Assembly (NCBI RefSeq): GCF_013315695.1
Contig: NZ_CP054353.1
Reading direction: 5' to 3' (one strand)
Length of the DNA stretch: 64,000 nucleotides
Origin: Escherichia coli
GTDB lineage: Bacteria > Pseudomonadota > Gammaproteobacteria > Enterobacterales > Enterobacteriaceae
Shown here: positions 19,546 through 47,006 of the stretch, piece after piece
Layout of the letters: every line of letters starts with the position of its first letter
How positions within the stretch are numbered: the first letter of the stretch is position 1
The notes under the pieces: generated by a model
Told to the model about the DNA's origin: nothing
Databases searched by the model: none
Seen by the model: only the letters and a program-made list of their open reading frames with translations
Program-made: the position numbers and the translations under genes

Positions 19546-21987
19546 ATGTCACAAGATCCTTTCCAGGAACGCGAAGCTGAAAAATACGCGAATCCCATCC
19601 CTAGTCGGGAATTTATCCTCGAACATTTAACCAAACGTGAAAAACCGGCCAGCCGTGATGAGCTGGCGGTAGAACTGCACATTGAAGGCGAAGAGCAGCT
19701 TGAAGGCCTGCGTCGCCGCCTGCGCGCGATGGAGCGCGATGGTCAACTGGTCTTCACTCGTCGTCAGTGCTATGCGCTGCCGGAACGCCTCGACCTGGTG
19801 AAAGGTACCGTTATTGGCCACCGTGATGGCTACGGCTTTCTGCGGGTTGAAGGGCGTAAAGATGATTTGTATCTCTCCAGCGAGCAGATGAAAACCTGCA
19901 TTCATGGCGATCAGGTGCTGGCTCAGCCGCTGGGTGCTGACCGTAAAGGTCGTCGTGAAGCGCGTATTGTCCGCGTACTGGTGCCAAAAACCAGCCAGAT
20001 TGTTGGTCGCTACTTTACCGAAGCGGGCGTCGGCTTTGTGGTTCCTGACGACAGCCGTCTGAGCTTCGATATCTTAATCCCGCCCGATCAGATCATGGGC
20101 GCGCGGATGGGCTTTGTGGTCGTAGTCGAACTGACTCAGCGTCCGACTCGCCGCACCAAAGCGGTGGGTAAAATCGTCGAAGTGCTGGGCGACAATATGG
20201 GCACCGGCATGGCGGTTGATATCGCTCTGCGTACCCATGAAATTCCGTACATCTGGCCGCAGGCTGTTGAGCAACAGGTTGCCGGGCTGAAAGAAGAAGT
20301 GCCGGAAGAAGCAAAAGCGGGCCGTGTTGATCTGCGCGATTTACCGCTGGTCACCATTGATGGCGAAGACGCCCGTGACTTTGACGATGCAGTTTACTGC
20401 GAGAAAAAACGCGGCGGCGGCTGGCGTTTATGGGTCGCGATTGCCGACGTCAGCTACTATGTGCGTCCGTCAACGCCGCTGGACAGAGAAGCGCGTAACC
20501 GTGGCACGTCGGTGTACTTCCCTTCGCAGGTTATCCCGATGCTGCCGGAAGTGCTCTCTAACGGCCTGTGTTCGCTCAACCCGCAGGTAGACCGCCTGTG
20601 TATGGTGTGCGAGATGACGGTTTCGTCGAAAGGCCGCCTGACGGGCTACAAATTCTACGAAGCGGTGATGAGCTCTCACGCGCGTCTGACCTACACCAAA
20701 GTCTGGCATATTCTGCAGGGCGATCAGGATCTGCGCGAGCAGTACGCCCCGCTGGTTAAGCATCTCGAAGAGTTGCATAACCTCTATAAAGTGCTGGATA
20801 AAGCCCGTGAAGAACGCGGTGGGATCTCATTTGAGAGCGAAGAAGCGAAGTTCATTTTCAACGCTGAACGCCGTATTGAACGTATCGAACAGACCCAGCG
20901 TAACGACGCGCACAAATTAATTGAAGAGTGCATGATTCTGGCGAATATCTCGGCGGCGCGTTTCGTTGAGAAAGCGAAAGAACCGGCACTGTTCCGTATT
21001 CACGACAAGCCGAGCACCGAAGCGATTACCTCTTTCCGTTCAGTGCTGGCGGAGCTGGGGCTGGAACTGCCGGGCGGTAACAAGCCGGAACCGCGTGACT
21101 ACGCGGAGCTGCTGGAGTCGGTTGCCGATCGTCCTGATGCAGAAATGCTGCAAACCATGCTGCTGCGCTCGATGAAACAGGCGATTTACGATCCAGAAAA
21201 CCGTGGTCACTTTGGCCTGGCATTGCAGTCCTATGCGCACTTTACTTCGCCGATTCGTCGTTATCCAGACCTGACGCTGCACCGCGCCATTAAATATCTG
21301 CTGGCGAAAGAGCAGGGGCATCAGGGCAACACCACTGAAACCGGCGGCTACCATTATTCGATGGAAGAGATGCTGCAACTGGGTCAGCACTGTTCGATGG
21401 CGGAACGTCGTGCCGACGAAGCAACGCGCGATGTGGCTGACTGGCTGAAGTGTGACTTCATGCTCGACCAGGTAGGTAACGTCTTTAAAGGCGTAATTTC
21501 CAGCGTCACTGGCTTTGGCTTCTTCGTCCGTCTGGACGACTTGTTCATTGATGGTCTGGTCCATGTCTCTTCGCTGGACAATGACTACTATCGCTTTGAC
21601 CAGGTAGGGCAACGCCTGATGGGGGAATCCAGCGGCCAGACTTATCGCCTGGGCGATCGCGTGGAAGTTCGCGTCGAAGCGGTTAATATGGACGAGCGCA
21701 AAATCGACTTTAGCCTGATCTCCAGCGAACGCGCACCGCGCAACGTCGGTAAAACGGCGCGCGAGAAAGCGAAAAAAGGCGATGCAGGTAAAAAAGGCGG
21801 CAAGCGTCGTCAGGTCGGTAAAAAGGTAAACTTTGAGCCAGACAGCGCCTTCCGCGGTGAGAAAAAAACGAAGCCGAAAGCGGCGAAGAAAGACGCGAGA
21901 AAAGCGAAAAAGCCATCGGCGAAAACGCAGAAAATAGCTGCAGCGACCAAAGCGAAGCGTGCGGCGAAGAAAAAAGTGGCAGAGTGA
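19546..21987 (+). CDS. rnr: Ribonuclease R
   Basis: ORF 19504..21987; conserved start [14 protein letters not shown] at ATG 19546, 813 aa; RNB catalytic domain, S1 domain, Lys-rich basic C-terminal tail. Confidence 0.95.
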
Positions 21988-22044
21988 TCAATACCCTCTT
22001 TAAAAGAAGAGGGTTAGATTGCTGACAAAATGCGCTTTGTTCAT

Positions 22045-22142
22045 GCCGGATGCGGCGTGAACGCCTTATCCGGCCTACATAATCACGCAAATTCAATATA
22101 TTGCAGAGATCATGTAGGCCGGATAAACGTAGTGCATCAGGC
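22045..22142. repeat. REP/RIP element: two inverted REP units flanking an IHF-type L motif
   Basis: GCCGGATGCGGCGTGAACGCCTTATCCGGCCTACA and inverted TGTAGGCCGGATAAACGTAGTGCATCAGGC flanking AATTCAATATATTGC. Confidence 0.7.
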
Positions 22143-22166
22143 AAAACGTAAACAACGAGTACATTA

Positions 22167-22898
22167 ATGAGCGAAATGATTTACGGCATCCACGCAGTGC
22201 AGGCCCTGCTGGAGCGCGCCCCTGAACGTTTTCAGGAAGTCTTTATTTTAAAAGGCCGTGAAGATAAACGTCTGTTACCGCTGATTCACGCCCTTGAGTC
22301 TCAGGGCGTGGTTATCCAGTTGGCAAACCGCCAATATCTCGACGAGAAAAGCGACGGTGCCGTGCATCAGGGCATTATCGCCCGCGTGAAGCCAGGACGT
22401 CAGTATCAGGAAAACGATCTGCCGGATCTGATCGCTTCGCTCGATCAACCGTTCCTGCTGATCCTCGACGGCGTAACCGATCCGCACAACCTCGGCGCGT
22501 GCCTGCGTAGTGCGGACGCCGCAGGCGTTCATGCGGTGATTGTGCCGAAAGATCGCTCCGCACAGCTCAACGCTACGGCGAAAAAAGTAGCCTGCGGCGC
22601 GGCAGAAAGCGTTCCGCTGATTCGGGTGACTAACCTTGCGCGCACCATGCGTATGTTGCAGGAAGAGAATATCTGGATCGTCGGTACGGCAGGCGAGGCG
22701 GATCATACACTCTATCAGAGCAAAATGACCGGACGCCTGGCGCTGGTGATGGGTGCGGAAGGTGAAGGTATGCGTCGCCTGACTCGTGAACATTGCGATG
22801 AGTTGATCAGCATCCCGATGGCTGGAAGCGTTTCTTCCCTGAACGTTTCGGTTGCGACCGGAATTTGCTTATTTGAAGCGGTGCGCCAGCGCAGCTAG
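22167..22898 (+). CDS. rlmB: 23S rRNA (guanosine2251-2'-O)-methyltransferase RlmB
   Basis: ORF 22167..22898, 243 aa, SpoU/TrmH family motifs. Confidence 0.93.
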
Positions 22899-22930
22899 TT
22901 CATCGCTATCCATTCAATGGATATTTTGTT

Positions 22931-22957
22931 AGCCCGATAATTTTTACGTATCGGGCT
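22931..22957. terminator. Hairpin between convergent rlmB and the IclR-family gene (candidate bidirectional terminator)
   Basis: AGCCCGATA-ATTTTTACG-TATCGGGCT, 9-bp stem with T-rich loop. Confidence 0.4.
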
Positions 22958-22974
22958 TCGAATGGAAAATACCC

Positions 22975-23775
22975 TTAATGGTGGGAATCAATACCGATAT
23001 TGATATCCTGTAAGGTGTTGAGTTCCTGTTCAATACGCGAACGTGCATTCAGCAGGATACGCGTGACATCGGCAATTTTTTCTTTTGTCGCACGAAATAC
23101 GGGTATTGAAATGCTGATGGCGGCAAGCGTTTTATTTCGCTGTTTTAAGGCAACAGCATAACATACCGTCTCCTCATTGATTTCCCTGTTATCAAATGCA
23201 TACCCATTTACTCTGGCATCCTCAAGTTGTTGGCGCAATTGTTCCAGGGTCGTAACGCTATACGATGTCATGGGAACAAAACCGTCAGGGTAGAGTTGCT
23301 GAATTTGTTGATCACTGTATTCACAGATAATGGCTTTTCCCAGCGCAGAATAGATAGCAGGCAGACGAGTCCCAATATGTGAAACCAGTTGTACGGTTTG
23401 TGCCGCCTGCACCTTATTGATATATAAAACATCTGCACCGTCCAGGATCCCCATCTGACAAACCTCATTGCACTCTTTGACAATGTTGTTCATCTCTTTG
23501 TAAACCATTTTTAACCAGTACGATCTGTCGAGGAAAGCACGGGACAGAATCGAGCAGGAGATCCCCAGATTATAAAGCTGGGTATTAGCGTCATAACTGA
23601 TGTACCGCTGTTCAACCAGCGTTTTGAGGATGGGAAAAATCGTTCCTTTCAGGATGCCTGTTTTTTCCGAAAGGTGAGTTAATGAAACACCCTGATTCTC
23701 CGCTGCCAGTGCTTCCAGTATCTCTAACACCCGGATGGTAGGCTTATGTTCCATAATGACTATTTCCCTTACCAT
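22975..23775 (-). CDS. IclR-family transcriptional regulator (accessory island)
   Basis: ORF 22975..23775, 266 aa (alternative ATG at 23754); N-terminal winged HTH (LEILEALAAENQGVSLTHLSEKTGILKGT) and C-terminal IclR effector domain; AT-rich coding sequence. Confidence 0.8.
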   Translation of the reverse strand: MVREIVIMEHKPTIRVLEILEALAAENQGVSLTHLSEKTGILKGTIFPILKTLVEQRYISYDANTQLYNLGISCSILSRAFLDRSYWLKMVYKEMNNIVKECNEVCQMGILDGADVLYINKVQAAQTVQLVSHIGTRLPAIYSALGKAIICEYSDQQIQQLYPDGFVPMTSYSVTTLEQLRQQLEDARVNGYAFDNREINEETVCYAVALKQRNKTLAAISISIPVFRATKEKIADVTRILLNARSRIEQELNTLQDINIGIDSHH

Positions 23776-23989
23776 GAGTAATGCACCATTCTAGGGAGAA
23801 TTATAATTCAAGTAAATAAACCCCCTCGCGTTCCTTGACTGCTGTTGACCCCATCAGTCCTTTTTTAGCGTGATACTGGTCATAAAACGGATAAAAAAAG
23901 AACTGTGATTGTTTTTTATGCAGGCCTCTGGCGTAATTACTCCAAATCTATCAATAACTTATGTGTATCACTTCTGTGATTGGCTAAAT

Positions 23990-24051
23990 TTGACTTATTT
24001 CTGAGGTTGGGTATACTCATTTTAGTTTGTATTTAAAAACGTTGTTTGTAT
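23990..24051 (+). promoter_or_regulatory. Candidate sigma70 promoter (TTGACT, 16 nt, TATACT) with two GTTTGTAT direct repeats just downstream (possible operator)
   Basis: TTGACT 23990-23995, TATACT 24012-24017; GTTTGTAT at 24025-24032 and 24044-24051; lies upstream of the aldolase-like gene and divergent from the IclR gene. Confidence 0.35.
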
Positions 24052-24082
24052 ATATGAACAATAAAACTATGATGAGGTAGGC

Positions 24083-24976
24083 ATGAAAAGTCGTTACATA
24101 ACCCCCGTTGTCACCATATTTGATGAACAAGGGCGAATCGATCCTGAGCAAAACACTCAGGTTTATGATTTTATTAAAAATCACGTGTCCGGGTTTGTTG
24201 TGATGGGCAGTACTGGTGAGTTTTTTTCGCTTAATATGGAAAACGCCCGCCAAATGATTAAAACCTGTAGTGAGTTTTCCCGAGGCGATATGAAGGTTTA
24301 TGCCGGAGCCAGTCGCATGGACGTCAATGAATCAATATCACTGGCCAATTACGCCTGGGAGCAAGGATTGGATGGTGTGATGATCATCAGTCCTTATTAT
24401 TTCCCTCTGGATGATGAAGCTATTTTTGATTTCTACAGTACGATTGCAAGCCAAACCCCGGCTCATATTTTTATTTATAACTTCCCGGAGAGAACCGGGT
24501 ACAGCGTATCACCAGAGATTTGTTTACGACTGGCAGATAAATATCCCAATATTATTGGTATGAAAGATACCGTCCCTGATGCTTTCCATACTGCGCAGGT
24601 TATCAATACCGTAAAGAAAAATATCCCTCATTTTGAAGTGTATGCAGGATATGACAATAATTTTGCCCACAACATACTATCTGGTGGAGATGGCTGTATT
24701 GGTGGTTTATCCAATATTGTCCCTGAATTTTTTGCCTCCTGGATGCAAGCATTCACGAATGACGATTTACTTGCAGTCGCGCAGCATCAGCAGATAGTCG
24801 ATCAACTAATGGCCGTTTACAGCGTGAATTCTCCTTTTATTCCCACTTTCAAAAAAGCCCTTCAGTTAAAGGGGGTTATTCAATCAGAACGGTGTTCTTC
24901 ACCATTTAATATACTTGATGATATTCAATCCCGGAGATTGCAGGAAATTTTATCTGTCACCGATTATTATAAATAA
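24083..24976 (+). CDS. DapA/NanA-family class I aldolase or lyase (2-keto-3-deoxy sugar-acid aldolase-like)
   Basis: ORF 24083..24976, 297 aa; GSTGEF motif, YNFP tyrosine and IIGMKDT lysine aligning with the DHDPS-family Schiff-base lysine. Confidence 0.8.
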   Translation: MKSRYITPVVTIFDEQGRIDPEQNTQVYDFIKNHVSGFVVMGSTGEFFSLNMENARQMIKTCSEFSRGDMKVYAGASRMDVNESISLANYAWEQGLDGVMIISPYYFPLDDEAIFDFYSTIASQTPAHIFIYNFPERTGYSVSPEICLRLADKYPNIIGMKDTVPDAFHTAQVINTVKKNIPHFEVYAGYDNNFAHNILSGGDGCIGGLSNIVPEFFASWMQAFTNDDLLAVAQHQQIVDQLMAVYSVNSPFIPTFKKALQLKGVIQSERCSSPFNILDDIQSRRLQEILSVTDYYK

Positions 24977-25026
24977 TATAAAACCTATAAATAGAATATC
25001 TTACCAACAGAACTAAGGATTTATTT

Positions 25027-26328
25027 ATGGCTAATATAACCCAATACGATAATCCGCTGTTGAATTCCGCAATTCAAAAATCGTGGAAACGTTTAGTACC
25101 CTTAATGTTCATAATGTATTTTGTTGCCTTTATTGATCGGGTAAATGTTGGCTTTGCCAAAGATGCAATGAAACTGGATATTGGATTATCAGAGTCGGCA
25201 TTCGCTCTCGGTGCAGGAATATTTTTCGCTGCCTATGCACTTTTCGGCATTCCAGCTAACCTGATCCTCAATAAAATCGGCGCACAAAAGTGGTTAAGTA
25301 TTACAACTGCAATTTGGGGCCTTCTCTCGGCAATGATGGGATTTGTCACCGGTGAAACGCAATTTATTATTTTGCGCTTTCTGTTAGGGCTGGGCGAGGC
25401 GGGGTTCTATCCCGGAATTTTACTGCTCGCATCCATTTATTTTCCTAACAAGGTTCGCGGATCGGTCGTGGGAATATTTGTGTTGGGGGTGCCGCTGGCG
25501 TTAACGCTCGGTTCGCCAATATCGGGAGCTTTACTTGAACTACATGGCTGGATGGGACGTCCAGGATGGTTCTGGATGTTTGTCATTGAGGGATTGCCGG
25601 CATTAGTGCTTGGTATCTTTACCTGGTTCTACCTTGATGATAATCCGACGAAAGCGCGATTTCTTACCCAGGAAGAAAAAGACGCTTTGAATAAGCAACT
25701 GGAATCTGAACGACAGAAAACAGAAACCAGTTCAGTGATTTCAGCATTGAAAAATGCCAAAGTTTGGCATCTGGCATTAATCTACGGCACCATCCAGATA
25801 TCAGTATATGGTTTAATGTTTTTCCTTCCGTCACAGGTTGCATCGCTGATGGGAGAAAGCCTTGGCTTTAAGCAGTCATTAGTCGCGGCAATACCATGGG
25901 CGTGCTCTGCTTGTGGCGTCTATTACATTCCGCGAATTGCTGACCGCAATCCTTCCCGGCGTGTGGCCATTTCGGTTATGTGTATGTTGGCTGCTGCTGT
26001 CGGCCTTGCCCTTTCCGCATTTGCGGGGCCTGTTGTGGCGATTGGTGCACTTTGTTTAAGTGCGGTTGGTTTCCTCTCAGTACAGCCAATATTCTGGACT
26101 TTCCCTCCACAACTTCTTACTGGTCCGGCACTGGCTGCGGGGATCGGTTTTTGCACCACGATGGGCGCTTTCTGCTCGTTCCTTGCTCCTCTTATCCGTG
26201 TTGAGGTTGATCGGGCAATGGATAGCAGCATCGCCGGATTGATGGCGTTGTCTGTAATTACTATCGGCTGCGCATTATTGATTGGATTGCTGCAAAAGAG
26301 CCAACAGGCAGCAAAAGCATACAGTTAA
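25027..26328 (+). CDS. MFS transporter, anion:cation symporter-like (putative sugar-acid permease)
   Basis: ORF 25027..26328, 433 aa, about 12 predicted TM helices, FIDRVNVGFA motif near TM1. Confidence 0.8.
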   Translation: MANITQYDNPLLNSAIQKSWKRLVPLMFIMYFVAFIDRVNVGFAKDAMKLDIGLSESAFALGAGIFFAAYALFGIPANLILNKIGAQKWLSITTAIWGLLSAMMGFVTGETQFIILRFLLGLGEAGFYPGILLLASIYFPNKVRGSVVGIFVLGVPLALTLGSPISGALLELHGWMGRPGWFWMFVIEGLPALVLGIFTWFYLDDNPTKARFLTQEEKDALNKQLESERQKTETSSVISALKNAKVWHLALIYGTIQISVYGLMFFLPSQVASLMGESLGFKQSLVAAIPWACSACGVYYIPRIADRNPSRRVAISVMCMLAAAVGLALSAFAGPVVAIGALCLSAVGFLSVQPIFWTFPPQLLTGPALAAGIGFCTTMGAFCSFLAPLIRVEVDRAMDSSIAGLMALSVITIGCALLIGLLQKSQQAAKAYS

Positions 26329-26355
26329 TAAGATTGAACATCTGACTGGAAGAAT

Positions 26356-36575: not shown

Positions 36576-37640
36576 TTACAGGAATGACTTGAATGGCAGA
36601 TCCGGTTCAATAGTGAAGCAATCATCGAAACCGCGCGGATAGTGGTACTCGAAGTTGTCTTTATCCAGCGGCCAGGTAAATTTGCCGCCCACCTGCCAGA
36701 TAAACGGCTTGAAGCCATACTTCAGACGATCTTTTTTCATCTCCCACAGCACGCGGATCTCTTGCGGATCGGCCTGGAAGTTTGACCAGATATCGTGGTG
36801 GAACGGGATAACCACTTTCGCATTCAGCGCTTCACCCATACGCAGCATATCGGCGCTGGTCATTTTGTCGGTAATACCGCGCGGGTTTTCGCCGTATGAA
36901 CCTAAAGCCACGTCGATCTGATGTTCGTTACCGTGCTTCGCATAATAGTTAGAGTAGTGGGAGTCGCCGCTGTGATACAGGGAGCCGCCAGGCGTTTTGA
37001 ACAGGTAGTTCACCGCGCGATCGTCCATGCCATCTGGCAGTACGCCAGCCGCTTTTTGATCGGCAGGCAGGGTGATCAGTGCAGTACGGTCGAAAGCATC
37101 AAACGCATGAATTTCAATGTCTTTCACTTTTACTACATCGCCCGGTTTGACCACGATGCAACGCTCTTTCGGTACGCCCCAGCCAATCCACAAATCCACA
37201 CAGGTTTTCGGTCCAATGAACGGTACGTCATCAGCACCGTTCTGCATCACAGCAGCAGCGACGTTGACGTCGATATGATCGTTGTGATCGTGAGTCGCCA
37301 GTACCGCGTCGACCTGGCGAATCGCAAACGGATCAAGAACAAACGGGGTGGTGCGCAGGTTTGGCTGCAGTTTTTTCACGCCAGCCATGCGCTGCATCTG
37401 GTGACCCTGTTTCATTAACGGGTTACCGTGACTTTGTTTGCCAGTGCCGCACCAGAAATCAACGCAAACGTTGGTGCCACCTTCCGATTTTAACCAGATC
37501 CCGGTGCAGCCAAGCCACCACATCGCAAATGTGCCAGGTGCGACCTGTTCTTGTTCAATTTCTTCATTCAACCAGCTACCCCACTCCGGGAAAGTGCTCA
37601 GGATCTAGGATTCACGGGTGATACTTTTCACTTTACTCAT
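36576..37640 (-). pseudogene. ulaG: L-ascorbate-6-phosphate lactonase ulaG with an in-frame amber stop at codon 12
   Basis: ATG at 37638-37640 reads MSKVKSITRES, then TAG (plus-strand CTA at 37605-37607), then continues in frame as [18 protein letters not shown]... into ORF 36576..37571 (metallo-beta-lactamase fold, HxHxDH). Confidence 0.75.
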
Positions 37641-39722: not shown

Positions 39723-40160
39723 ATGAAATTACGTGATTCGCTGGCGGAAGCTGAGACATGGCAGGACGCAGTGAAAATCGGCGTGGACCTGCTGGTAGCG
39801 GCAGATGTGGTAGAGCCGCGTTACTACCAGGCGATTCTGGATGGCGTTGAACAGTTTGGTCCTTATTTCGTTATCGCTCCGGGGCTGGCAATGCCGCACG
39901 GGCGTCCGGAAGAGGGCGTTAAGAAAACCGGTTTCTCTCTGGTAACGCTGAAAAAGCAGCTGGAATTTAACCACGACGACAACGATCCGGTGGATATCCT
40001 CATCACCATGGCGGCGGTTGATGCCAACACTCACCAGGAAGTAGGCATCATGCAGATCGTCAACCTGTTTGAAGATGAAGAGAATTTCGACCGTTTACGC
40101 GCCTGCCGTACCGAGCAGGAAGTACTGGATCTCATTGACCGCACCAACGCGGCAGCTTAA
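39723..40160 (+). CDS. ulaC: Ascorbate-specific PTS EIIA component UlaC, 145 aa; appears to lack about 9 N-terminal residues relative to the 154-aa K-12 form
   Basis: ORF 39723..40160 reads [20 protein letters not shown]; the K-12 protein as recalled has NKSIRLQAE between these, so a 27-bp in-frame deletion at 39749/39750 is inferred. Confidence 0.8.
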
Positions 40161-40173
40161 GAAGGAATTGAAC

Positions 40174-40824
40174 ATGTCATTACCGATGTTGCAAGTCGCG
40201 CTGGACAACCAGACTATGGATAGCGCCTACGAAACCACTCGCCTGATTGCCGAAGAAGTCGACATTATCGAAGTGGGTACCATTCTGTGCGTGGGCGAAG
40301 GCGTGCGTGCGGTTCGCGATCTGAAAGCGCTCTACCCGCACAAAATCGTGCTGGCAGACGCCAAAATTGCCGATGCGGGCAAAACTCTTTCTCGTATGTG
40401 CTTCGAAGCCAACGCTGACTGGGTGACCGTAATTTGTTGTGCGGATATCAACACCGCCAAAGGTGCGCTGGACGTGGCAAAAGAGTTTAACGGCGACGTG
40501 CAGATCGAACTGACCGGTTACTGGACCTGGGAACAGGCGCAACAGTGGCGCGACGCAGGTATTCAGCAGGTGGTTTATCACCGCAGCCGTGACGCGCAGG
40601 CCGCTGGCGTGGCGTGGGGTGAAGCCGATATCACTGCGATCAAACGTCTTTCCGATATGGGCTTCAAAGTCACCGTCACCGGTGGCCTGGCGCTGGAAGA
40701 TCTGCCGCTGTTCAAAGGCATTCCAATTCATGTGTTTATCGCCGGTCGCAGCATCCGTGATGCCGCTTCTCCGGTTGAAGCCGCGCGTCAGTTCAAACGT
40801 TCCATCGCCGAACTGTGGGGCTAA
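40174..40824 (+). CDS. ulaD: 3-keto-L-gulonate-6-phosphate decarboxylase UlaD
   Basis: ORF 40069..40824; start [19 protein letters not shown] at ATG 40174, 216 aa. Confidence 0.92.
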
Positions 40825-40833
40825 GGAGCGGAT

Positions 40834-41688
40834 ATGTTGTCCAAACAAATCCCGCTTGGCATCTATGAAAAAGCGCTCCCCGCCGGGGAGTGCTGGCTGG
40901 AACGCCTGCGACTGGCAAAAACGTTGGGCTTCGATTTTGTCGAGATGTCGGTAGATGAAACGGACGAGCGCCTGTCGCGCCTCGACTGGAGCCGCGAGCA
41001 GCGTCTGGCGCTGGTGAATGCGATTGTTGAAACCGGCGTGCGTGTGCCGTCCATGTGCCTTTCTGCCCATCGTCGTTTCCCGTTGGGCAGCGAAGATGAC
41101 GCGGTGCGGGCGCAGGGGCTGGAGATTATGCGTAAAGCCATCCAGTTCGCCCAGGACGTTGGCATTCGCGTGATCCAGCTGGCGGGCTATGACGTTTACT
41201 ATCAGGAAGCCAATAACGAAACGCGTCGTCGTTTCCGTGACGGCCTGAAAGAGAGCGTTGAGATGGCGAGCCGCGCGCAGGTGACGCTGGCGATGGAGAT
41301 CATGGATTACCCATTGATGAACTCCATCAGCAAGGCGCTGGGCTACGCGCACTATCTCAACAACCCGTGGTTCCAGCTCTACCCGGATATCGGCAACCTG
41401 TCGGCGTGGGACAACGATGTGCAGATGGAATTGCAGGCCGGAATAGGGCATATCGTCGCGGTGCATGTGAAAGACACCAAACCTGGCGTCTTCAAAAACG
41501 TGCCATTTGGCGAAGGCGTGGTGGATTTCGAACGTTGCTTTGAAACGCTCAAACAGAGTGGCTATTGCGGGCCGTACCTGATTGAGATGTGGAGCGAAAC
41601 GGCGGAAGACCCGGCGGCAGAAGTGGCGAAAGCGCGTGATTGGGTGAAAGCGCGCATGGCCAAAGCAGGCATGGTGGAGGCTGCATAA
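40834..41688 (+). CDS. ulaE: L-ribulose-5-phosphate 3-epimerase UlaE
   Basis: ORF 40834..41688, 284 aa, xylose-isomerase-like TIM barrel. Confidence 0.92.
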
Positions 41689-42323
41689 TGCAAAAGCTAA
41701 AACAGCAGGTGTTTGAAGCCAACATGGATCTGCCGCGCTATGGGCTGGTGGTGATCAAGCCCAGCGGCGTCGCCTACGAAACCATGAAAGCAGACGATAT
41801 GGTGGTGGTTGATATGAGCGGCAGGGTGGTGGAAGGGGAGTATCGCCCATCTTCCGACACCGCGACGCATCTCGAACTCTACCGTCGTTACCCGTCGCTT
41901 GGCGGCATTGTCCATACCCACTCCACTCATGCCACCGCATGGGCGCAGGCGGGGCTGGCGATCCTGGCGTTAGGCACCACGCACGCTAACTACTTCTTTG
42001 GTGATATCCCGTGTACGCGTGGATTAAGCGAAGAAGAGGTGCAGGGTGAGTATGAACTGAACACTGGCAAAGTGATTATCGAAACGCTGGGTGACGCCGA
42101 GCCGCTGCATACGCCGGGAATTGTGGTGTATCAGCACGGGCCGTTCGCCTGGGGGAAAAATGCCCACGATGCGGTGCATAACGCGGTGGTGATGGAGGAA
42201 GTGGCAAAAATGGCGTGGATTGCGCGCAGTATTAACCCACAACTGAATCACATCGACAGCTTCCTCATGAATAAACACTTCATGCGTAAGCACGGTCCTA
42301 ACGCCTATTACGGGCAGAAGTAA
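41688..42323 (+). CDS. ulaF: L-ribulose-5-phosphate 4-epimerase UlaF, 211 aa; in-frame deletion of 17 codons removing the conserved TxTWGNVS region (probably inactive)
   Basis: ORF 41640..42323; from ATG 41688 reads [31 protein letters not shown]; AraD/UlaF-family proteins have ...[26 protein letters not shown]... here; junction at 41741-41750 within a GGGCTGGTG repeat. Confidence 0.8.
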
Positions 42324-42419
42324 GCAGTGCGCCCCGGAATTATTACCTCCTGCGGGATGTAATTGGTCTGATTCCGGGGCCGCTTCAGTTAAAAAATCAT
42401 ATAAACAACAGGTGTTTTT

Positions 42420-42971
42420 ATGGCTATCAATGGATTGTTTGTCAGAACGGATCCGCAGCGTCGCCGCTATGGCGTTGCGTTACTTGTGGGTGTGCTTTCA
42501 GGAATTATTTCAGCATTTGTTAAATGGGGAGCGGAAGTCCCCTTGCCACCGCGCACATTTTCCGGTGGTCGCGATGAATTTAACCCGCCGTATATCTTTC
42601 TACGAGATTATTTAGGTATCGACCCAACCCAAACTGTGTATACCTTCTCGGAACATATTATCAACCCGGTGATGGTGACGCATATCATCTTCTCCCTGGT
42701 TTTTGCGATAGGGTATTGTGTTGTCGCGGAAATTTTCCCGAAAGTGAAATTATGGCAGGGGATATTAGCAGGGCTTATTGTGACAGTGGCAGTCCACGGT
42801 ATATTTTGCCCGGCGCTGAATTTAACGCCGCCGCTCACTCAATTGCCTTTTGACGAATATGCGTCTGAAATCTTGGGGCATATTTTCTGGTTCTGGATAA
42901 TAGAGATTATGCGCCGCGACTTACGTAATCGCATTACTCATGAGCCGGATCCGGAAGTCGCAATTCGGTGA
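42420..42971 (+). CDS. YagU-like inner-membrane protein (DUF1440 family)
   Basis: ORF 42420..42971, 183 aa; RRRYG...[15 protein letters not shown]...NPPYIFLRD...THIIFS..GYCVVAE...[13 protein letters not shown] pattern resembles E. coli YagU; 3-4 predicted TM helices. Confidence 0.7.
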
Positions 42972-42987
42972 ATAACCGTATAAAAAA

Positions 42988-43005
42988 GCCCCCTGCGAAG
43001 GGGGC
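42988..43005. terminator. Bidirectional hairpin terminator between the YagU-like gene and yjfY
   Basis: GCCCCCTGCGAAGGGGGC flanked by A-run upstream and A/T downstream; between convergent genes. Confidence 0.55.
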
Positions 43006-43045
43006 AAAGCAAACTATGGCAATGTTTCGTTGGTTATACCTGGTG

Positions 43046-43321
43046 CTAGCGATAAATATCCGCGCTGGCGTGCATATTGCCGTTACTCCCCGGTTCCCGC
43101 ATTAGAATTACGTGGTAGTACGTTGCGCCCTGCGCATCTGTCTCTTCATTTAATGCCTGACGTGCTTCGCTTTCAGTGGCGAAATTATGATTGATATAAA
43201 TCACGCCTAAGCTCTGTACGTCGTCCATATTTCTGGACTGGTGGTTATTAATTTCAATGGCTGCCCATGTATTTGCACTTAGCAAAAGCACAGCCAGAAG
43301 GGCTAAAACACGACTGAACAT
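43046..43321 (-). CDS. yjfY: YjfY (DUF1471 family secreted protein)
   Basis: ORF 43046..43390; start MFSRVLALLAVLLLSANTWAA at ATG 43321, 91 aa. Confidence 0.82.
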   Translation of the reverse strand: MFSRVLALLAVLLLSANTWAAIEINNHQSRNMDDVQSLGVIYINHNFATESEARQALNEETDAQGATYYHVILMREPGSNGNMHASADIYR

Positions 43322-43629
43322 AGATACCTCCTCGACGGCTGACTTTGTGTGCTCTCCTCTGTGATGATCTTCTGATTTAATTTTAATCAATGATAAAGAA
43401 GTTGATGGTGACCATTTCTGATGCAGTTGTTCGAAAAAACACTGTGACGGAATGTGATGAACTTCAAATCAGGGAGTTAGTTCTTTTGAGCGAAAGATGA
43501 GATTTATTTGTCGGCTGGCCTTGAGTTTAGCGGGGCATACAAGTACTATAACGCGTCATTTTTCAGCCGACCTTTAACACGTTCCTTGCCTCCCCGGGAT
43601 TCGGCTGACCCAGACAGGAGGCTGAATAA

Positions 43630-44043
<414 letters not shown>

Positions 44044-45157: not shown

Positions 45158-45952
45158 TTAGTTTCGCAAGTAGATCCATTCACCATTCTCTTGTGTCCAT
45201 AAGTCAGGATGGTTTGCTGGCGTTAGATGCATACGATCACTCCTTATGTCTCGGTCCTGCGGCACTCGCTCGAAACCTAAACCCGAGTAGATTGCTGCTG
45301 AATTTGATAAGGAACGTAGACCAATTTTCAAATCATGGGGTAAATCAGAATACGCGTTTAGCAATGCAGCAATGATGAATCCGAGGGCATTAGAAACGCC
45401 TGTAACAGTGCGAAGTTGGTCGATATAAAGATCGATTGTTGGTAGTTCAGATGACCAGCAATTAGGCATTTGGGCAGGAAGGGTTACAACGTATCCTATC
45501 GTTTGGCCGGTATAGTCTGGAGTACCATAACCAGGTCCCAAAACCACTTCGTGTATTGTGTATTTACTGTTGGGTTCGAAGGATTCGACATCTTGCAATA
45601 AATATTTCAGTTCTGCGGTTAACCTCGCACCCGCGTAAGCTTTATTGTATTTCTGGGCGTGAATATTATCTAATGTAGCTTCATGGTTCCATCCAAAAGA
45701 ATTATCACCATTCATTGTTACTCCATCGTAAGCATTACACTTCGTTGCTAACTTATTGAATGCTTGCCAGTCAGAGAGATCTAGTTTGTGGATCTCAACA
45801 GTACGTCTGCCATCGCAATTATGATCTCTTCCACGATTTGGCAGTAATGTAGCACGTGCATATTGATGAAATTTTAATTTTACTGGTTTGTCGGTGGACG
45901 AAAAATAGGGTGAATATGCAGGAAATGAATAAATAGTCGTTGGTAATGTCAT
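45158..45952 (-). CDS. yjfZ: Uncharacterised protein YjfZ
   Basis: ORF 45158..45952, 264 aa, AT-rich, no recognisable catalytic motif. Confidence 0.75.
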   Translation of the reverse strand: MTLPTTIYSFPAYSPYFSSTDKPVKLKFHQYARATLLPNRGRDHNCDGRRTVEIHKLDLSDWQAFNKLATKCNAYDGVTMNGDNSFGWNHEATLDNIHAQKYNKAYAGARLTAELKYLLQDVESFEPNSKYTIHEVVLGPGYGTPDYTGQTIGYVVTLPAQMPNCWSSELPTIDLYIDQLRTVTGVSNALGFIIAALLNAYSDLPHDLKIGLRSLSNSAAIYSGLGFERVPQDRDIRSDRMHLTPANHPDLWTQENGEWIYLRN

Positions 45953-46298
45953 TGTAATGTTACCTGTTTAATGTTTTTATAAATATCGCAGCTGATGTTC
46001 ACAGAAAAAGAATCGATATTAATAAAAATAAGTTTGTTTTCTGAAGTAGTGAAAATAGCGGATGGTGAAAGATATTAATATCAAAAATCGCTCATTATGG
46101 ATATAACGATGCCCCCGGGGAGAAAATGACTTCCACGCCTTCTACCATACATTCTTGTTGTGCGGTATGTAATTATTCTACGCTGTTGGTATCGGTGCGT
46201 TTGTTAATCATCTGGTTAACCAGCCACAAAAAGCCATTGAGAAAGTTATTGATTCTACATGGAATTATTATATTTCTAATCCCTGGTTTTTAAAAGTT

Positions 46299-46514
46299 GT
46301 GCATAGTGAAAATCAAAGTAAAGGTGTGCATTATGCAAAATCACAGCGTCTCTTAGAAATTAACCATACGCACTTGCAGTTAATGGAATCCTTATTGGAT
46401 GAAGGGAAGAAACACAATATTTTTAAGCCAGATAGCGACCCATTGCAGGTGAATATTAATATTGCTGCGCTTGGGGGATATTATTTGATCAACCAGCATA
46501 CGCTTGGCCTGGTT
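46299..46514 (+). pseudogene. ytfA: ytfA-like remnant of a TetR-family regulator (C-terminal ligand-binding portion only), followed by the IS left end
   Basis: ORF 46299..46790 begins with TetR C-terminal-like sequence and no HTH, then reads through the IS left-end hairpin; the distal part is not genuine coding sequence. Confidence 0.45.
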
Positions 46515-46574
46515 TATCTGGTGCGCCGTAAAACCCCGTCCTTCAGGGCGGGGATATACGGCGCGGTTTTCCAC

Positions 46575-47006
46575 CTAACCAGGTGTTTGCTGTTGTTCAA
46601 TGTATTGACGGATGGCGGATATTGGCGCACCTCCGCAGCTACTGGCAAAATAGCCAGGACTCCACAAAACGCCTTTGTAGTAATACCTGACTGCAATATC
46701 TGGTCGATCTCGTCGCAGTCACCTACCCGATACGCCTTTGAGGCTGTTTACCAGACTGGATATCGCCAGTTTGGGAGGATAGTTAATTAACAAATGGACG
46801 TGATCTGGTTCGCCATCCATTTCAACCAGTTCAGCTTCAAAATCAGCACATACATTTGAAAAGTAAGTGCGTAGTTTTTCTGTCGCGTCATAGTCAAAAA
46901 TCTGACGTCGGTATCTGGTGACAAAGACCAGGTGAACATGCATCAGGAAAACACAATGCCTTCCCCGTCGGATATCGGTTTCTTTATTCACAGACCAAAG
47001 TATCAT
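46575..47006 (-). pseudogene. tnpA: IS200-type Y1 (HUH) transposase TnpA interrupted by an in-frame TGA at codon 96
   Basis: ORF track 46719..47006 gives 95 aa (...[27 protein letters not shown]); the same frame continues past the TGA as [44 protein letters not shown], the conserved TnpA C-terminus. Confidence 0.7.

Follow-up and report, generated by a model that had tools for sequence, protein, structure and literature searches.

A second YagU-family gene between ulaF and yjfY of Escherichia coli, probably ancestral at this site and deleted in most strains

The 183-codon open reading frame (ORF) located between ulaF and yjfY in Escherichia coli KL53, a urinary isolate from Slovakia (PMC5876489), is a real and intact gene, ordinary in character and catalogued before. 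The explanation that best covers the results as a whole, and to which we give a probability of roughly 0.75, is that the gene encodes a functional second member of the YagU (DUF1440) family, that it is ancestral at this site and has been deleted in most E. coli, and that it would be transcribed by read-through and have a role connected with acid stress and the cell envelope.

In the window (the whole stretch of DNA that was analysed, 64,000 nt) the ulaF-yjfY intergenic interval is exactly 42324-43045: the stop codon of ulaF ends at 42323 and that of yjfY begins at 43046. The ORF list contains one long ORF in this interval, at 42420-42971 on the plus strand, which has an ATG start and encodes 183 aa. 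The ORF proposed in the sequence-only reading was thus confirmed, and its surroundings are as follows.

41688-42323, plus strand: ulaF, next gene upstream, in the same orientation as the ORF (annotation, alignments)
42410-42414, plus strand: Shine-Dalgarno sequence AGGTG, with the ATG 5 nt downstream (read from the sequence)
42420-42971, plus strand: coding sequence of the YagU family (DUF1440), stop codon included (ORF list, Pfam, RefSeq annotation, dN/dS, AF2 model, hydropathy and charge)
43046-43321, minus strand: yjfY (DUF1471), the convergent downstream neighbour (annotation, tblastn)

The start position of the ORF matches that of the orthologues in E. whittamii, Salmonella, Pseudocitrobacter and Hafnia. 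Over 42200-43450 the window matches KL53 with 100 % identity. In the RefSeq annotation of KL53 the ORF is a "YagU family protein", WP_000996728.1, which is the identical protein.

Further along the window the RpsF leader (RF02893, 110 bits) is located at 43566-43650 on the plus strand, upstream of rpsF as expected, and it was the sole above-threshold match of the Rfam scan. Downstream of rplI, the stretch at approximately 45158-46820 contains a copy of IS1B with a truncated DUF2686 gene (yjfZ) on one side and a truncated metallophosphoesterase gene on the other, which points to an IS1-associated deletion in KL53. Outside the window, KL53 carries a heat-resistance island (clpK, hsp20-GI, kefB-GI, yfdX1/2 and others) at 20964-36011 of NZ_CP030919.1, with IS elements on its flanks, near a truncated mhpA.

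The similarity to YagU that had been recognised from the sequence was clear in profile and pairwise searches. The protein matched Pfam PF07274 (DUF1440) with 153.7 bits (E 3.9e-45), far above the curated cut-off of 34.7 bits, residues 29-163 corresponding to positions 1-135 of the 135-position profile, and it shares 57 % identity with K-12 YagU (E 1e-81), with gaps in 21 of the 199 alignment columns. All 46 columns that are invariant over 55 sequences of the family, K-12 YagU included, are kept in the 183-aa protein. The NCBIfam scan gave only marginal matches, to CbtA (14.8 bits, cut-off 182.9) and TIGR04086 (15 bits, cut-off 30), and both identities were dismissed as noise, being far below the cut-offs.

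The earlier description of the product as a membrane protein also agrees with structure prediction. The AF2 model (mean pLDDT 81.6, pTM 0.79) contains four transmembrane (TM) helices, at residues 17-39, 83-105, 115-132 and 144-173; it also has a helix on the periplasmic side (56-65) and a small hairpin (74-81). In the hydropathy profile three segments are strongly hydrophobic and one is amphipathic, and the N-terminus, the loop at 103-114 and the C-terminus are rich in lysine and arginine. Helices, hydropathy and charge together predict a small inner-membrane protein with four TM helices and both termini on the cytoplasmic side. From this topology the invariant residues E39, H88, H126, E146, E150 and H154 are predicted to be oriented toward the periplasmic side. 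A profile search of PDB sequences with the protein gave nothing at E ≤ 1, and Foldseek with the model gave no match in the PDB at E ≤ 0.001, so that no mechanistic lead was obtained from the fold with these two methods.

The canonical yagU is also present in KL53, at 64981-65595 of NZ_CP030919.1, between paoA and ykgJ and beside paoABCD, and it occurs in ~90 % of genomes. As KL53 has both genes, the gene in the window is a paralogue of yagU and not its orthologue. The position is different, the gene is a second copy of the family, the proteins share 57 % identity, the protein encoded here is shorter, and it falls into a separate clade of the tree. Within the Enterobacterales the short proteins form a subfamily apart from canonical YagU, and the product of this gene is one of them.

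The ulaF-yjfY locus has two alleles in E. coli. The gene is present in 603 of the 5,426 complete genomes (~11 %), in all of them with at least 95 % identity and essentially once per genome. The gene-free junction of the K-12 type, searched for with a probe of 230 nt across the gene-free junction of K-12, is contiguous in 4,830 genomes, K-12 included, and the gene-free allele accounts for ~89 %. In K-12 the spacer between ulaF and yjfY is 129 bp long and contains no gene. Both the short, gene-free K-12 interval that had been expected and the variability between strains that had been suspected were therefore borne out by the comparison of genomes. The ula region itself occurs in E. coli as two deep haplotypes: KL53 and HUSEC2011 are 92-97 % identical to K-12 over ulaD-ulaF, and the hairpin that comes after ulaF is only ~70 % identical between the two. 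The region of deep haplotype divergence spans approximately 40370-42390, i.e. ulaD-ulaF and the spacer.

Outside E. coli, an orthologue is found between ulaF and yjfY in E. whittamii (99 % amino acid identity), in a Salmonella contig (91 %) and in Pseudocitrobacter faecalis (88 %). In Hafnia alvei and Hafnia paralvei the orthologue comes directly after ulaF, with a gap of 26-27 nt and no hairpin, and it also comes directly after ulaF in two Budvicia species. Altogether, E. coli included, the linkage to ulaF on the same strand was observed in eight taxa of three families. The branching in a neighbour-joining tree of the short subfamily is roughly that of the species tree.

Two hairpins flank the gene.

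42326-42384, plus strand: conserved long stem-loop just past the ulaF stop codon (RNA fold -33 kcal/mol, z -3.3; consensus fold; alignment)
42988-43005, minus strand: G+C-rich hairpin GCCCCCTGCGAAGGGGGC, the intrinsic terminator of yjfY (terminator scan, K-12 alignment, fold -20.5 kcal/mol)

The downstream hairpin had been taken for the gene's own terminator. The hairpin is real, but it belongs to yjfY. In the terminator scan its seven pairs are followed by TTTTTTATAC on the minus strand, while the plus strand reads AAAGCAAAC after the hairpin, and the structure is unchanged in K-12. Because the T-run is on the minus strand and the hairpin is present in K-12, which does not have the gene, it is assigned to yjfY; the YagU-like gene shares it but does not own it. 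The same region gave a sub-threshold Rfam match to STnc280, a Salmonella sRNA, at 42976-43049 on the minus strand (28.3 bits, gathering score 80, E 0.018). The match covers the 3' end of yjfY and the terminator; judged from the sequence, this STnc280-like stretch may be an sRNA derived from the 3'-UTR, or it may merely resemble one through its terminator.

Both E. coli alleles have the upstream stem-loop, which is also conserved in E. whittamii, Salmonella and Pseudocitrobacter, and compensatory changes were found in 8 of the 19 pairs of a consensus fold of six sequences. Gene-bearing E. coli and E. whittamii have the identical hairpin. Within E. coli, the two alleles differ in the tail of the stem, which is GCUUCAGUU, with no U-tract, in the gene-bearing allele and GUUUUUC in K-12. 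As GUUUUUC comes after the stem, the K-12 structure is a canonical terminator. No Rfam family matched the stem-loop at 42326-42384.

The promoter scan detected no sigma-70-like sites in the 96-nt spacer in front of the ORF or in the last 320 nt of ulaF; the only two such sites were both inside the ORF. The hexamer TATAAA at 42400-42405 was considered as a promoter and rejected: the hexamer in the -35 position is GGGCCG, and a transcript from there would not contain the Shine-Dalgarno sequence. Most of the spacer is taken up by the hairpin that has no U-tract. This, the result of the promoter scan and the tight arrangement in Hafnia suggest read-through from the ula promoter, and transcription would then occur mainly by passage across the conserved stem-loop that has no U-tract. 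The stem-loop may serve in processing or stabilising the transcript. In Pseudocitrobacter ulaF is followed by a proper terminator with a U-tract, which argues against obligatory co-transcription with ula. The simple scan may also have missed a promoter belonging to the E. coli copy.

The linkage to ulaF raises the alternative that the gene is a working accessory of L-ascorbate utilisation, a seventh ula gene that has been overlooked since K-12 does not have it. Its product might, for example, be a partner of the UlaA transporter in the membrane, or protect the cell while ascorbate is fermented. The gene is immediately past ulaF and on the same strand across genera, in the eight taxa and three families mentioned above, the gap in Hafnia is only 26-27 nt without a hairpin, and no separate promoter was found. 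The support that this conserved linkage gives to a seventh ula gene is modest. In most species that have an orthologue it is located elsewhere and stands alone: in approximately 40-45 other species it has unrelated neighbours and an upstream gap of at least 178 nt, which shows that the family is not dependent on ula. The neighbourhoods of 53 species loci revealed no common functional partner besides ula. Moreover, K-12 and the rest of the 89 % of E. coli genomes without the gene have the ula genes, and K-12 uses ascorbate. In KL53 both ulaF and ulaC have private in-frame deletions and the YagU-like gene is intact, which suggests selection on the gene that is independent of ula. To our knowledge no DUF1440 protein has a role in ascorbate catabolism, and the literature search gave no mention of a gene between ulaF and yjfY, nor of ulaF together with yjfY. 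The name STM4389 proved to denote yjfY and not this gene. An accessory role in ascorbate utilisation is thus considered unlikely, and its stricter form, an ancestral seventh component that shares the ulaA-F transcript and is required if ascorbate is to be fermented anaerobically in an efficient or safe way, is a little more doubtful still. If the gene were a seventh component, it could for example provide acid or envelope protection or be a partner of the UlaA permease, and it would have been missed because all work on ula has used K-12, a deletion strain.

The ula genes of KL53 have several lesions of their own. In ulaF (41688-42323) 51 nt have been lost in frame between the 9-nt direct repeats GGGCTGGTG, a private deletion that removes residues 19-35 and with them the TWGN motif. 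The same gene has four private substitutions, K63R, P110L, D118N and D175N, at positions where K-12, HUSEC2011, E. whittamii and Salmonella all have the same residue. Judging from these changes the UlaF enzyme of KL53 is probably impaired. A private 27-nt in-frame deletion is present near the 5' end of ulaC (39723-40160). The ulaG gene, at approximately 36577-37605 on the minus strand, is annotated with 1,029 nt and is shorter than ulaG of K-12, which we take to be about 1,065 nt. It is possible from these sequences that the ula system of KL53 is decaying while the adjoining YagU-like gene stays intact.

The sequence-only reading had interpreted the gene as an insertion, and it is on this point that the comparison with other species leads elsewhere. 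The segment that is absent from K-12 has the following edges.

42390-42396, no strand: left TAAAAAA direct repeat, bordering the segment absent from K-12 (sequence, junction alignment with K-12 and 2017.11.01CC)
42981-42987, no strand: right TAAAAAA, 591 nt from the left copy, its minus strand being the T-run of the yjfY terminator (sequence, terminator scan, alignment)

K-12 thus does not have a 591-nt segment that is bounded by 7-nt direct repeats. Since the missing segment is bounded by short direct repeats and the outgroups hold the gene at this place, K-12 is regarded as carrying a deletion allele. According to the preferred explanation the gene would be an ancestral feature of the 3' end of the ascorbate operon ulaABCDEF, most E. 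coli, K-12 included, would have lost it by a 591-nt deletion between the two TAAAAAA runs, and the ~11 % of complete genomes that have it would have retained the ancestral gene. Two observations complicate a simple history. When representatives of the Escherichia species were scanned, no match was obtained in E. albertii, E. fergusonii, E. marmotae or E. ruysiae and only E. whittamii matched, so that under the ancestral scenario the gene must have been lost several times, or else recombination must have spread the deletion allele. The ~30 % difference in the hairpin between the E. coli alleles is not accounted for by a single recent deletion.

The opposite history would be that a single gene was acquired horizontally, in particular strains, and inserted into a ulaF-yjfY spacer that was originally short. 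It would fit the absence of the gene from 89 % of E. coli genomes and from the representatives of the other named Escherichia species except E. whittamii; the G+C content of the gene (~47 %) is below that of the ula genes (55-58 %), and the flanking short A-rich direct repeats could be read as a target duplication. However, the yjfY side is equally low in G+C, Salmonella, Pseudocitrobacter and E. whittamii have this gene at the very same site, in Hafnia and Budvicia it comes after ulaF, and its divergence tracks the species tree. The dS of 0.32 to E. whittamii and the saturated dS to Salmonella are the divergence expected of vertically inherited orthologues. No terminal inverted repeats were found around the gene, only the 7-nt A-run repeat, other repeats being short and at chance level, and no integrase or transposase gene was present in the flanking annotation. 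With neither inverted repeats nor a mobility gene, and with the gene present in outgroups, the locus does not resemble a mobile insertion or a genomic islet, and the 7-nt repeats that bound the K-12 gap fit a deletion. A recent import from E. whittamii was also considered and ruled out, the gene's dS of 0.32 being similar to that of the flanking genes. The insertion view is largely refuted by outgroup synteny, and we regard it as very improbable.

The comparison of sequences shows that the YagU-like gene is under strong purifying selection and is neither a chance ORF nor a remnant. The KL53 allele differs from that of HUSEC2011 (O104:H4) by 9 synonymous and 0 non-synonymous changes, and the two encode the same protein accession. 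Between KL53 and E. whittamii the changes number 33 (synonymous) and 2-3 (non-synonymous) (dS 0.32, dN/dS about 0.02), and between KL53 and Salmonella dN is 0.054 with saturated dS; over the comparisons with E. whittamii and Salmonella dN/dS is 0.015-0.03. That the gene is a decaying remnant, functionless in E. coli and heading for loss, is hardly credible: it has been lost from most strains and the adjoining ula genes of KL53 bear private lesions, but all 40 sampled carriers have an unbroken frame with a protein annotation, and the protein is identical between alleles differing at 9 synonymous sites, with dN/dS about 0.02.

The possible function is suggested by the paralogue. The yagU gene is strongly induced by acid, and a yagU::kan mutant had approximately three-fold poorer survival at pH 2 (PMC1626474, PMC2270276). 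Like YagU, the 183-aa protein would help the envelope to cope with acid stress. By analogy with YagU, a paralogue with only 57 % identity, it may protect the envelope under such stress.

The results have consequences for the use of K-12 as a model. If the short spacer between ulaF and yjfY in K-12 is derived and arose by deletion, this strain does not represent the reference state here. Two YagU-family genes are carried by ~11 % of complete E. coli genomes, among them the O104:H4 strains HUSEC2011 and 2011C-3493, and the presence of two such genes, both directly shown in KL53, bears on knock-out studies of acid resistance. The ula-linked position also offers a concrete regulatory setting for probing what DUF1440 proteins do.

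Compared with K-12 YagU (b0287), the protein described here has the same full-length Pfam family, the same predicted four-helix layout and the same conserved motifs, FPKxKLWQG among them. It is 183 aa long, whereas YagU has 204 aa, and it does not have the periplasmic insert of ~21 residues that bears two cysteines in YagU. Its gene is downstream of ulaF, while that of YagU is beside paoABCD and ykgJ. Acid induction and an acid-resistance phenotype are known for yagU only (PMC1626474, PMC2270276).

With respect to the K-12 ulaABCDEF operon, the gene is on the same strand and ulaF is its immediate neighbour, and the conserved post-ulaF stem-loop is present in both alleles. The K-12 operon, however, ends at ulaF with the stem and then a U-tract.

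We know of no characterised protein among the short YagU-family orthologues. Those of the Enterobacterales (183-187 aa), for example from Salmonella enterica, S. bongori, Citrobacter, Klebsiella oxytoca, Hafnia and Serratia, are of the same length class as the protein described here and 75-91 % identical to it. The orthologues of Citrobacter, Klebsiella, Raoultella, Providencia, Rahnella and Serratia stand alone among unrelated neighbours, whereas the gene described here is linked to ulaF.
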